Shown here: positions 17,631-19,981 of the stretch, in pieces
Position numbering within the stretch: position 1 is the first letter of the stretch
Layout of the letters: each line of letters begins with the position of its first letter
NCBI GenBank assembly: GCA_964412315.1
Contig: CAYPON010000002.1
Coordinates: 1 to 37,547, forward strand
DNA: 37,547 nucleotides
From: an uncultured Anaerolineae bacterium
GTDB lineage: Bacteria; Chloroflexota; Anaerolineae; JAAYEA01
Reading direction: 5' to 3'
Position numbers and translations under genes: made by a program
The notes under the pieces: generated by a model
Told to the model about the DNA's origin: nothing
The model's input: only the letters and a program-made list of their open reading frames with translations
Databases searched by the model: none

Positions 17631-18596
17631 TTAGCCCTTCACATATCCATGATCTCGGAACCAACGCACCGCTTCCGTCAGCGCCCCCTCTAGAGGTGTT
17701 TGGGGCAATCCCAACTCGCGGATCGCCTTGCTTGGATCACAGGTCAAAGCCGCCGGCTGACGGCCTTGATCCTGCCTGGCCGCTTTCCGCGAGAGCCGCT
17801 GCCGCAACCTGGCCAGGGGGGAGGCCTGCACCTCAGGGAGAAGCTGGAGCCCCGAGGCCCGCGCCATGAGTGCGCAGAATCCCTCCAGCATGAGGTTGCC
17901 ACTGGCGTTGCCGAGGATGTAACGTTGCCCGACCTGTCCCCTGCGCGCGGCCAGAAGATGGCCTTGCGCCACATCCTGGACGGCAATGAAGTTGATCCCC
18001 CCTGGTGGGAAAGAGGGCTTCTTGCCGTTCAAATAGTCCACGATGCGCTGGCCGGTGCTGGTCGGCTTGATGTCGCATGGCCCGACCGGCGCACAGGGAT
18101 GGACAACGACCACCGGCAGGCCATACTTCACCATAGACAGGGCGACTGTCTCGCCCAAGTACTTCGATTTGACGTAATCACTGCACGTTTCCCAAAGGTT
18201 AAAAGGCGTGTCCTCCGTCGGAAGTTCATCGCCGGTGGGACGACCAATAGTGCCGATGGTGCTCGTATGCACCACACACTGCACGCCACTCTCCAGGGCG
18301 GCCATCATCACATTTTTCGTGCCTCGCACGTTGACCTGGAACATCGCCGGCCCGTCCTCCGCCCTCGTGCTGTAAAATGCCGCCACATGATACAACTCGT
18401 CACAGCCCTTCAGTAAGGCCAGGAGCCGCTCCTGATCCCGCAGGTCGCCGTAGACGATCTCCACGTCCAGGCCATCCAGGTTGTGTTTGTCGCTTCCCTC
18501 CCTCACGAGAACGCGCACCCGCGCTCCTTCGCGCAGCAAAGCGCGCACGGCGTGGGTGCCGACAAAGCCTGTCGCCCCTGTCACGACAGCGATCAC
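17631..18596 (-). CDS. NAD(P)-dependent sugar epimerase/reductase of the extended SDR family (HpnA / dihydroflavonol-reductase-like)
   Basis: Rossmann motif VVTGATGFVGTHAVRALL; YxxxK in DYVKSK; SDKHNLDGLDVEIVYGDLRD, DIKPTSTGQRIVD and GQRYILG resemble HpnA-type proteins. GTG start in a GTGA overlap with the upstream radical SAM stop. Confidence 0.85.
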   Translation of the reverse strand: MIAVVTGATGFVGTHAVRALLREGARVRVLVREGSDKHNLDGLDVEIVYGDLRDQERLLALLKGCDELYHVAAFYSTRAEDGPAMFQVNVRGTKNVMMAALESGVQCVVHTSTIGTIGRPTGDELPTEDTPFNLWETCSDYVKSKYLGETVALSMVKYGLPVVVVHPCAPVGPCDIKPTSTGQRIVDYLNGKKPSFPPGGINFIAVQDVAQGHLLAARRGQVGQRYILGNASGNLMLEGFCALMARASGLQLLPEVQASPLARLRQRLSRKAARQDQGRQPAALTCDPSKAIRELGLPQTPLEGALTEAVRWFRDHGYVKG

Positions 18597-19981
18597 TCCG
18601 CTTCACCCCCTATCCGTCGGCGCAGCCATCCTCGCGCTTCCTGCAACATCCCTCGCTTGGGACCACTTCCACTTTCAAGCCGCTTCTGAACTTGCAGGAA
18701 TACCTCAAGAGTGGCCTCATCAGGCGGGATTGCGGCTTTTATCTCCTCAGCGGAGAGGCGAATCCCCGGATATGCCTGGAAAAGCTTGATATTGAGCGCG
18801 GAGGGGCGTATTTTCTCCAACCAGTCCAGGGTTTCCTGCGCTGCGCTCTGCTCCTGGCCCGGCAGTCCAAGCATCACAAAGACGCGGCAGCGCAAGCCGA
18901 TGGCGAGGCAAATCCGCACCAGTGCGGCGACATGTTCTCGGTAAGCTGATGCTGCCTCCACTGTCTCTATTCTCCGTAGCTTGTGGAGCAACGGGCCAGA
19001 CGTAGTTTCCAGCCCGATCTTGATCCCTTCGCAGCCCGCCCGCTTCATTAACCGCAGCAGCGCCTCGTCGAAATGCTCAGGGCGCGACTCGCATTCCCAA
19101 CGGAGATGCAGCCTCGCGGCCAGGATTCCCTGGCAAAGGTCTACGACGCGCTCCCGATCCCAGGCGAAGACAGGGTCGCGGAACACGACCCGGCCGGGCC
19201 TGAATTCCTCGGCCAACCAAGCTAGCTCACCGACGATGCTCTCCGGCGACCGTGCCCGGAAACGGTTCCCTTGCGTCGCCACATAGGGACAATAGCGGCA
19301 ATAGTCGCCACACCCTCGGCTGCCCATCACGGTCAGAAAGCGATACCGCACGTAGGGCAAAAGGTCCCAGGCCGGATAGGGCAGGCTATCCAGCCCCTGG
19401 ATGTAGCCCTCCTCGTCGTAGCCGGGAACTCCCAGGCTTTGTGGGGAGAAAAAAGCCGGAGTTCGTAGTGGCGACTTTAGTCGTCCCCCCGTGTCAGAAG
19501 CGACTGAAGTCGCTACTACGAACCGGCAGGCGCTGAAAGAGCGCTCTGGCTCGCCCAAGAGTATACCATCCACGTTTGTCCGGCCAAGCTCCTTCTGGAC
19601 ATAGCGCGTCGCCGGGCCAAAGACGATAACGGAGCAGTGCGGGATTTCCGCCTTCAACGCTTGCAGAAACTCGATATCTCCCCTTAACGTATCGTAGGAC
19701 ACGAATACACCGATGACCGCCTCGCGGCCCTGCCGGATTGATGCTAACACGTCTTGGATGCTCCATCGCTGTGCTACGGCGTCCAGGGCACGAACCTGCC
19801 ATCCTTCCTGACGCAAGACAGCCCCAACATAGGCGATGGTCTGTGGCGGATAGTAAAAGCCTTGCGGCGAATGATCCAGATAACCGAGGCCCGCCGCGCC
19901 TTCGCGGTTAGCGGTGGCCCCTGCCGGGCTGGGCGGATTGATCAACACAGCGCTCTCTCTCGCCGACACGTTGACGTTCAC
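18593..19981 (-). CDS. B12-binding-domain-type radical SAM protein (class B architecture)
   Basis: 462 aa. The N-terminal flavodoxin-like domain (AVIGVFVSYDTL, SVIVFGP) is followed by the CX3CX2C motif GSRGCGDYCRYCPY and GIKIGLETTS. It carries an in-frame palindromic element (19456..19526) between the two domains. Confidence 0.8.
   Translation of the reverse strand: MNVNVSARESAVLINPPSPAGATANREGAAGLGYLDHSPQGFYYPPQTIAYVGAVLRQEGWQVRALDAVAQRWSIQDVLASIRQGREAVIGVFVSYDTLRGDIEFLQALKAEIPHCSVIVFGPATRYVQKELGRTNVDGILLGEPERSFSACRFVVATSVASDTGGRLKSPLRTPAFFSPQSLGVPGYDEEGYIQGLDSLPYPAWDLLPYVRYRFLTVMGSRGCGDYCRYCPYVATQGNRFRARSPESIVGELAWLAEEFRPGRVVFRDPVFAWDRERVVDLCQGILAARLHLRWECESRPEHFDEALLRLMKRAGCEGIKIGLETTSGPLLHKLRRIETVEAASAYREHVAALVRICLAIGLRCRVFVMLGLPGQEQSAAQETLDWLEKIRPSALNIKLFQAYPGIRLSAEEIKAAIPPDEATLEVFLQVQKRLESGSGPKRGMLQEARGWLRRRIGGEAE
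19456..19526. repeat. Palindromic repeat element (family B) inserted in frame in the radical SAM gene
   Basis: Arms are ccgg(ag)ttcgtagtggcgactttagtcg (19456..19483) and cgactgaagtcgctactacgaaccgg (19501..19526). They match at 24 of 26 paired positions; both exceptions are G.T on the plus strand, and there is a 2-nt bulge. The loop is 17 nt. Encoded peptide: RFVVATSVASDTGGRLKSPLRT. Confidence 0.7.

Follow-up and report, generated by a model that had tools for sequence, protein, structure and literature searches.

How did an inverted repeat come to lie, in frame, inside an intact gene for a radical SAM enzyme, and which of its possible structures is maintained? The question is raised by positions 19456..19526 of a 37,547-nt stretch of contig CAYPON010000002.1 (hereafter, the window), which belongs to a metagenome-assembled genome (MAG) of an uncultured Anaerolineae bacterium (3.5 Mb, 403 contigs, 58% G+C). 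The host gene (18593..19981, minus strand), delineated by its open reading frame (ORF), Pfam matches, an alignment, and a structural model, is intact and encodes a 462-aa radical SAM enzyme with a B12-binding domain, in which the CxxxCxxC motif is present. An initial annotation, made from the sequence alone, had described the element as one of a repeat family, referred to here as family B. The element is very probably a doublet of two inverted repetitive extragenic palindromic (REP) units, each headed by the tetranucleotide GTAG and with the heads facing outward, i.e., of the type known as REPIN (REP doublet forming hairpins) or BIME (bacterial interspersed mosaic element), and this explanation as a whole, insertion of a REP doublet into the gene, carries the same high probability.

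The inverted repeat itself is borne out by a repeat search and by shuffling. Its arms occupy 19461-19483 and 19501-19523, measure 23 nt each with 17 nt between them, and are complementary at 21 of 23 positions; adding the CCGG flanks across a 2-nt bulge yields the pairing of 24 of 26 positions given initially. As had been noted, both arm mismatches are G.T on the plus strand, and each arm holds a mini-palindrome of its own (CGACT-TT-AGTCG and CGACT-GA-AGTCG). The arm sequence is unique to this site within the window, and none of 100 shuffles contains the arm twice. Defined by repeat search and fold, the whole element (19456..19526, no strand assigned) comprises the REP doublet and its palindromic GTTC/GAAC and CCGG extensions. 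The left unit, GTAG-T-GGCGAC-TTTA-GTCGTC (19465..19485, plus strand), shows 0 mismatches to the family core and consists of a 5' GTAG head and a 6-bp local stem, including one G.T pair, around a TTTA loop. The right unit, GTAG-T-AGCGAC-TTCA-GTCGCT (19499..19519, minus strand), also matches the family core, and its local pairs are Watson-Crick at six of six positions. The two units, both of which have covariation behind them, are separated by a variable spacer (19486..19498, no strand assigned).

Across the family, the arms read GTAG-T-x1x2-CGAC-TTYA-GTCG-n1n2, corresponding to the unit pattern GTAG-T-[RRCGAC-TTYA-GTCGYY]. The order of GTAG, one nucleotide, and then the stem, which is that of GTAG-tagged REPs (for these, GTAG or GTGG stands 0–2 nt 5' of a short hairpin), was found in 49 units of the window's own genome and in 226 units elsewhere. 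Two structures can be drawn for such a pair, namely two small local hairpins or one long arm-to-arm palindrome, and they differ in the base pairs they predict. Among 113 non-redundant elements from other genomes, the local pair x2:n1 of the left unit is Watson-Crick in 108 (G-C 47, A-T 61), and the local pair m1:z2 of the right unit in 110 (A-T 57, G-C 53), whereas the pairs across arms are Watson-Crick in 36 (x2:z2), 38 (x1:z1), and 61 (y:r) of the same 113. A gap-free alignment of 52 elements gave a covariation of 0.244 for the two-local-hairpin structure vs. 0.143 in shuffled alignments, a value that none of 500 shuffles reaches, with 62 doubly changed cells against 25.7 in shuffles. For the long arm-to-arm helix, the covariation was 0.055 vs. 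0.077 shuffled, lower than in all 500 shuffles. The mini-palindromes of the initial annotation are, in other words, real structural units, while the long arm-to-arm hairpin described with them has no covariation support. The window's own genome adds further compensatory changes: x2:n1 is G-C in 25 of 49 units, A-T in 18, G.T in 4, and other in 2, and several single units carry a compensated CGGC...GCCG, derived from CGAC/GTCG, next to an unchanged partner unit. Stems kept by compensatory changes are the mark of REP sub-families, and inverted REPs with a short spacer are that of REPINs; the two units of one pair tend toward different sub-types.

A second line of evidence points to the strand on which the hairpin folds. 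On the GTAG strand, the outermost local pair x1:n2 (n = 226) is A-T in 126 units, G.T in 62, G-C in 27, and other in 11. The 62 G.T pairs would be A.C mismatches on the complementary strand; what folds and is under selection is therefore the small hairpin, on the single strand that bears GTAG. Strand asymmetry is therefore real per REP, with G.T 62 vs. A.C 7 on each unit's own GTAG strand, and because the pair is inverted, it indicates opposite strands for the two arms. It is not the bias suggested initially, by which the element would fold best as plus-strand, i.e., antisense, RNA or DNA. The predicted folding energies of the two strands are near equal, -47.8 kcal/mol on the plus strand (z = -8.6 against shuffles) and -44.7 kcal/mol on the minus strand (z = -7.3), and across the 18 full copies of the genome, neither strand folds consistently better. 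Cross-arm transition mismatches in these copies appear as G.T on the sense strand in 39 cases and on the antisense strand in 40, an approximate count in which sense was assigned from longest ORFs rather than gene calls. The two G.T pairs of the present element sit at x1:z1 and y:r, where elements of other genomes, read on an arbitrary plus strand, have G.T 39 and A.C 36 at the former and T.G 23 and C.A 29 at the latter. The 'arm mismatches' are independent R/Y polymorphisms of two REP units, and at sites polymorphic for purines or pyrimidines, any mismatch is necessarily G.T or A.C. With the small hairpin as the selected unit, arguments for strand bias from G.T pairs of the long stem are misleading. 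Family B offers a clean example of a REP doublet in which the selected unit is a small GTAG-strand hairpin and not a long palindrome.

The family is dispersed, as proposed. A genome-wide blastn search returned 26 matches in the window's own genome, and a fuzzy search returned 42 arm matches at ~25 loci with a constant arm-to-arm spacing of 40 nt; REP units in the genome number ~49, and full doublets 18. The spacer differs in every dispersed copy, and single REP units are also found alone. REP-pair cores in other genomes measure 53–57 nt. The class was surveyed with the arm motif GTAGTRRCGACTTYAGTCG (a 19-mer, at most two mismatches, with the reversed pattern as a control) in a sample of 301 genomes. 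The motif was present in 126 of them, with at least 10 matches in ~56 genomes from ~22 family-level groups and a maximum of ~360 per genome, vs. 0–5 per genome for the control. Its spread is patchy even inside families, with counts of 41, 51, and 0 in the family to which the window belongs. A search through named genomes located more than 118 element loci, mostly in MAGs of Anaerolineae, Anaerolineales, or Caldilineales, and a few in MAGs labelled Poribacteria, Acetothermia, Blastocatellia, Bacteroidetes, and Deltaproteobacteria. One locus is cyanobacterial (Floridaenema fluviatile BLCC-F154, L139:4599-4654, NZ_JBHFNS010000057.1) and has canonical units on an isolate contig of 170 kb, whose 41% G+C argues against Chloroflexota contamination. 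This distribution points to one REP sequence type spread across phyla. Viral contigs gave 17 matches among 2.9 million, i.e., no hint of a phage vector.

Family B prefers extragenic sites: in the wider sample, 5 of 121 elements (4%) lie within ORFs having at least 100 aa on both sides, whereas 46% of positions drawn at random from these loci do so. Contig C246 of the window's genome (G000:C246:1976-2142) carries 2.5 doublets in tandem, repeating every 72 nt; no other copies of that genome have a spacer in common. The tandem stands at the 5' end of a long open frame whose product looks secreted. Identical copies, longer flanks included, exist in other genomes, and in some of these a longer repeat of ~120–160 nt has the REP pair as its core. 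In the Anaerolineae MAG A05DMB24 (L121:6729-7787, JANLFX010000086.1), two inverted ~160-nt repeats with a family-B REP-pair core flank a two-gene module for an 83-aa DUF433-like protein and a PIN/Mut7-C-like protein (domain names by sequence reading), which has the look of a toxin-antitoxin cassette carried along between repeats with REP cores.

What, then, has the insertion done to its host gene? The element is read in frame, as stated initially, and appears as RFVVATSVASDTGGRLKSPLRT, residues 153-174 of the 462-aa minus-strand ORF. Pfam places the B12-binding domain at residues 42-151 and the Radical_SAM domain at 221-388; the insert starts 2 residues past the former and ~47 residues ahead of the latter. 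It does lie in the interdomain linker, and 'exactly at the junction' of the domains is slightly generous wording given these limits. In line with an insertion into a variable linker, the peptide occurs in none of 20 homologous proteins (43–62% identical), and a family-B unit in none of 11 orthologous loci of related genomes, among them the two further genera within its family, at 55% and 53% identity. The linker is near constant in length among the 20 homologues, varying by ~2 aa, and is 10 aa longer in the window protein, in which all the invariant residues of the enzyme, CxxxCxxC included, are retained. An identical protein with the insert has been recorded from four assemblies, described as independent, so the insert is not an assembly artefact; the 90% protein cluster of the enzyme contains only alleles that carry it. 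An AlphaFold2 model built on the homologue alignment (mean predicted local distance difference test (pLDDT) 90.6, predicted template modelling score 0.89) has residues 161-170 as its sole internal stretch of low confidence, where pLDDT drops under 50 at 166-170. In the model, the first arm makes up the end of helix 149-164, which is the B12-binding domain's last, and the loop of low confidence (about residues 163-168) is encoded by the spacer. The enzyme, with its 22-residue decoration, is probably intact and would still be functional; the in-frame insertion is probably harmless. Its consequences for this gene are very small, and annotators should read the insert neither as a domain nor as a frameshift.

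The radical SAM gene is not the only one to have received a copy. Full in-frame copies in the same genome lie in an 823-aa membrane protein without a Pfam match (C39) and a secreted protein of 1291 aa (C65), where MAM-like and beta-propeller parts flank the copy; partial ones lie in a GH-like/Wzy_C protein (C116) and a PMT_2/TPR protein (C61). In C65, C116, and C61, Pfam domains stand on both sides of the copy. Several more copies adjoin a gene's 5' end or overlap it (C35, C108, C180, C252, C204, C303, and C45). Two of these have uncertain true starts: at G000:C35:6944-7009, an ATG is fused straight to a doublet ahead of a PMT_2 glycosyltransferase, and at C108:3503-3565, a doublet separates an upstream in-frame ATG from the P-loop of a MiaA-like protein. 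In other genomes, two orthologous ABC exporters and a GH95-like enzyme hold in-frame copies. The exporters, which are MsbA-like and 71% identical (L170:6050-6104 and L213:1670-1724), carry the pair at an identical codon that follows FSYN and lies just ahead of the Walker A region, with spacers identical at 13 of 17 positions; additional partial units follow the shared pair in L170. The exporter pair is thus an inherited in-frame insert that has outlasted ~29% protein divergence. Slower evolution of its REP arms (36/38 identical vs. ~78% in the flanks) was considered and set aside, as both loci had been retrieved with an exact pattern, and this ascertainment bias makes the figure unusable.

Three other accounts of the element were weighed. 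A selected protein module, e.g., a linker or an interaction motif, would agree with the single frame, FVVATSVA...RLKSLLRT, used by all intragenic copies of the window's genome and with the exporter copy common to two genomes. However, the copies of other genomes translate the other open frame, RSNDFSR...ATEVATT, which rules out a universally preferred reading frame; spacer-encoded residues differ in each copy, the host proteins are mutually unrelated, the loop is of low confidence in the model, and conservation resides at the nucleotide level, where it is equal in intergenic copies. Nothing points to selection on the peptide, and an account built on it is extremely unlikely. The initial annotation leaned toward a functional RNA element, i.e., a long hairpin acting in mRNA or antisense RNA as a stabilizer, processing site, attenuator, or terminator, and this too seems unlikely. 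The predicted hairpin is very stable on either strand, REPs have been reported as RNA elements in other bacteria (PMC3733652), and the sequence and minus-strand fold place a run of six U residues in the mRNA (19449..19454, minus strand; an A run on the plus strand; codons Ala-Phe-Phe) right after the CCGGC foot of the hairpin, a terminator-like layout within a translated ORF. Yet the long helix required lacks covariation, falling under all 500 shuffles, the copies have no strand bias, and, judging by the other copies of the genome, a U run is not characteristic of the family. A simple terminator scan did not list the site, the region matched no Rfam family and gave chance-level matches only, and translation would keep the hairpin melted. 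The layout itself (19449-19459, minus strand) sits inside a long co-directional gene cluster and could cause polarity if translation were uncoupled.

The third account concerns origin: a MITE (miniature inverted-repeat transposable element), that is, a deleted DDE-type insertion sequence with the arms as terminal inverted repeats, moved by cut-and-paste with target-site duplication. The element is short, palindromic, non-coding, and multi-copy, and the identical ~120–160-nt repeats cored by the REP pair in some genomes would suit this account. Against it, no consistent direct repeat flanks 14 full copies under any of six boundary definitions, the anatomy is that of GTAG plus hairpin with covariation within arms and none between them, and single units also stand alone. 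The absence of a target-site duplication argues against a DDE-type MITE, which is very unlikely here, and fits Y1/HUH single-strand transposition. For the REP doublet, by analogy with REPs and their REP-associated tyrosine transposases (RAYTs) and with IS200/IS605 elements, we propose that a Y1 (HUH) tyrosine transposase would copy such non-coding hairpin repeats in trans via single-stranded DNA, a process that would leave no target-site duplication. In this genome's lineage, one copy would have been inserted into the variable linker that follows the B12-binding domain, and it may have survived as the 55-nt core is stop-free in two of three frames, the reading frame was kept by chance, and the site tolerates extra residues. 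It would now be simply translated, with the first arm modelled as a helix end and the spacer as a floppy loop.

Several observations weigh against this REP-doublet explanation, one of them the missing enzyme. Pfam Y1_Tnp searches covered the window's own genome, 37 + 6 carrier genomes, and 12 non-carriers, and ~78 Y1 loci were inspected for family-B units (at most three mismatches), any GTAG-headed hairpin, and GACTTYAGTC. Within 1.5 kb of the ~78 loci in the 43 carrier genomes there is no family-B unit, and none of the Y1 loci examined has a GACTTYAGTC hairpin. No single-copy RAYT flanked by the same REP, the arrangement called a REPtron, was found, and breaks of MAGs at repeats could hide such a locus. 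That the method does pick up REPtrons is shown by at least 15 of the ~78 loci, which have other GTAG REP families at their flanks. Seen from the elements, 118 loci of ~8 kb each are without an adjacent Y1 gene; a hidden Markov model built from these Y1 proteins gave one weak match in them, 4.5 kb from the element, and in all-against-all clustering of ORFs within 2.5 kb, only generic kinases and ABC ATPases recurred as neighbours. The one Y1_Tnp gene of the window's genome (C169:3308-3778, motif Y---Q--HH) lacks a family-B unit on the side that can be read, and on the other side its stop lies 25 nt from the 100-N scaffold gap at C169:3184-3282; the genome has no TnpB (PF07282). The nearest solved structures to its protein are 2xm3, 2xma, and 2xo6 (E = 3e-9), which we take to be ISDra2 TnpA.

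Other objections concern the element and its site. No two dispersed copies of the genome have the same spacer, i.e., there is no sign of recent activity, which suggests that this population is old and inactive. The net gain of the protein is just 10 aa for an element of 22–24 codons, which means that some of the old linker has been lost or replaced, or else that this variable stretch makes the alignment uninformative. With the closest orthologue (from a metagenome) at 61% identity and those of the same family at 55% and 53%, no empty site can be demonstrated at the DNA level. Lastly, the local stem has 6 pairs (x1x2CGAC/GTCGn1n2), the outermost often G.T, around a 4-nt loop, and is one pair short of a definition of REPs by a fully paired basal stem of at least 7 bp and a loop of 2–5 nt (PMC6006769).

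The REP-flanked Y1 loci include L055, L057, L058, L061, L094, L096, L105, L107, L108, L246, L247, L249, L253, L258, and L260. At least seven of these 15 (L055, L057, L058, L061, L094, L096, and L105) are of the Y---Q--HH type, with clusters of several GTAG REP families alongside, and the RAYT-like Y1 genes of the class mostly have this motif. The motif is assigned to subclass 1.2, described as generally without terminal IS200-type hairpins and mainly from Cyanobacteria and Bacteroidetes (PMC6006769); the present loci suggest that this subclass is REP-associated in Anaerolineae. Tentatively, family B may be regarded as an 'orphan' GTAG REP, whose 19-nt unit is kept near letter-for-letter over ~22 family-level groups without a REPtron of its own and would be maintained by a Y1 enzyme never flanked by family B or by some unknown host factor; this is possible rather than probable. 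Candidates for such an enzyme are the common Y---Q--HH RAYT-like genes of the class and an ISDra2-type TnpA that acts on end hairpins of the same core. The breadth of one REP type, together with a transposase that was not found, poses a modest question on the upkeep of REP populations in Chloroflexota.

Among known systems, the ends of ISDra2, an IS200/IS605 element of Deinococcus radiodurans, share the hairpin core. The TnpA-bound hairpins, given as oligonucleotides in PMC2806898, read ..GTGAC-TTCA-GTCAT.. at the left end (LE) and ..GCGAC-TTTA-GTCGT.. at the right end (RE), compared with RCGAC-TTYA-GTCGY in family B, i.e., the core CGAC-TTYA-GTCG is the same. A string search of the literature for the motif matched only these oligonucleotides and unrelated primers. 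The arrangement differs: both ISDra2 hairpins lie on one strand and enclose tnpA/tnpB, whereas family-B units are inverted, 13 nt apart, GTAG-headed, and enclose nothing. Since their TTYA loops lie on opposite strands, they do not form the end pair of an IS200/IS605 element or a palindrome-associated transposable element (PATE). Rickettsia palindromic elements (RPEs; Ogata et al. 2000) are alike in behaviour only, being palindromic, in frame in unrelated genes, and translated, with function apparently kept (discussed in PMC3733652). Di Nocera et al. equated short intragenic repeats of R. conorii with RPE-4 and RPE-6 and mentioned longer RPE-1 insertions (PMC3733652). The RPE host is an obligate intracellular alphaproteobacterium; most family-B copies are intergenic.

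The closest known systems are the GTAG-tagged REPs of Di Nocera, De Gregorio and Rocco (2013, PMC3733652), the REPINs of Bertels and Rainey (2011, PMC3116915), and the REP/BIME sequences of E. coli, and the anatomy of family B matches that of GTAG REPs and REP doublets described in these two papers and in PMC6006769. Like GTAG REPs, family B has a 5' GTAG beside a short hairpin, inverted pairing into dimers, stem sub-types with compensated changes, and frequent G.T pairs, and it is mainly intergenic, with occasional in-frame dimers encoding 20–30 residues, all features already described in 2013. Neither the family-B sequence type nor a radical SAM host appears in the accessible portions of the text and supplements of PMC3733652, where the only Chloroflexi genome listed is that of Thermomicrobium roseum. 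Unlike known REP systems, family B has no REPtron in 43 carrier genomes, and unlike the usual single REP type, it extends over ~22 family-level groups of one class and some other phyla. An in-frame REP doublet is a known kind of event, and the one described here is less ordinary only in the absence of a recognizable REPtron and in the breadth over which a single REP sequence type has spread.

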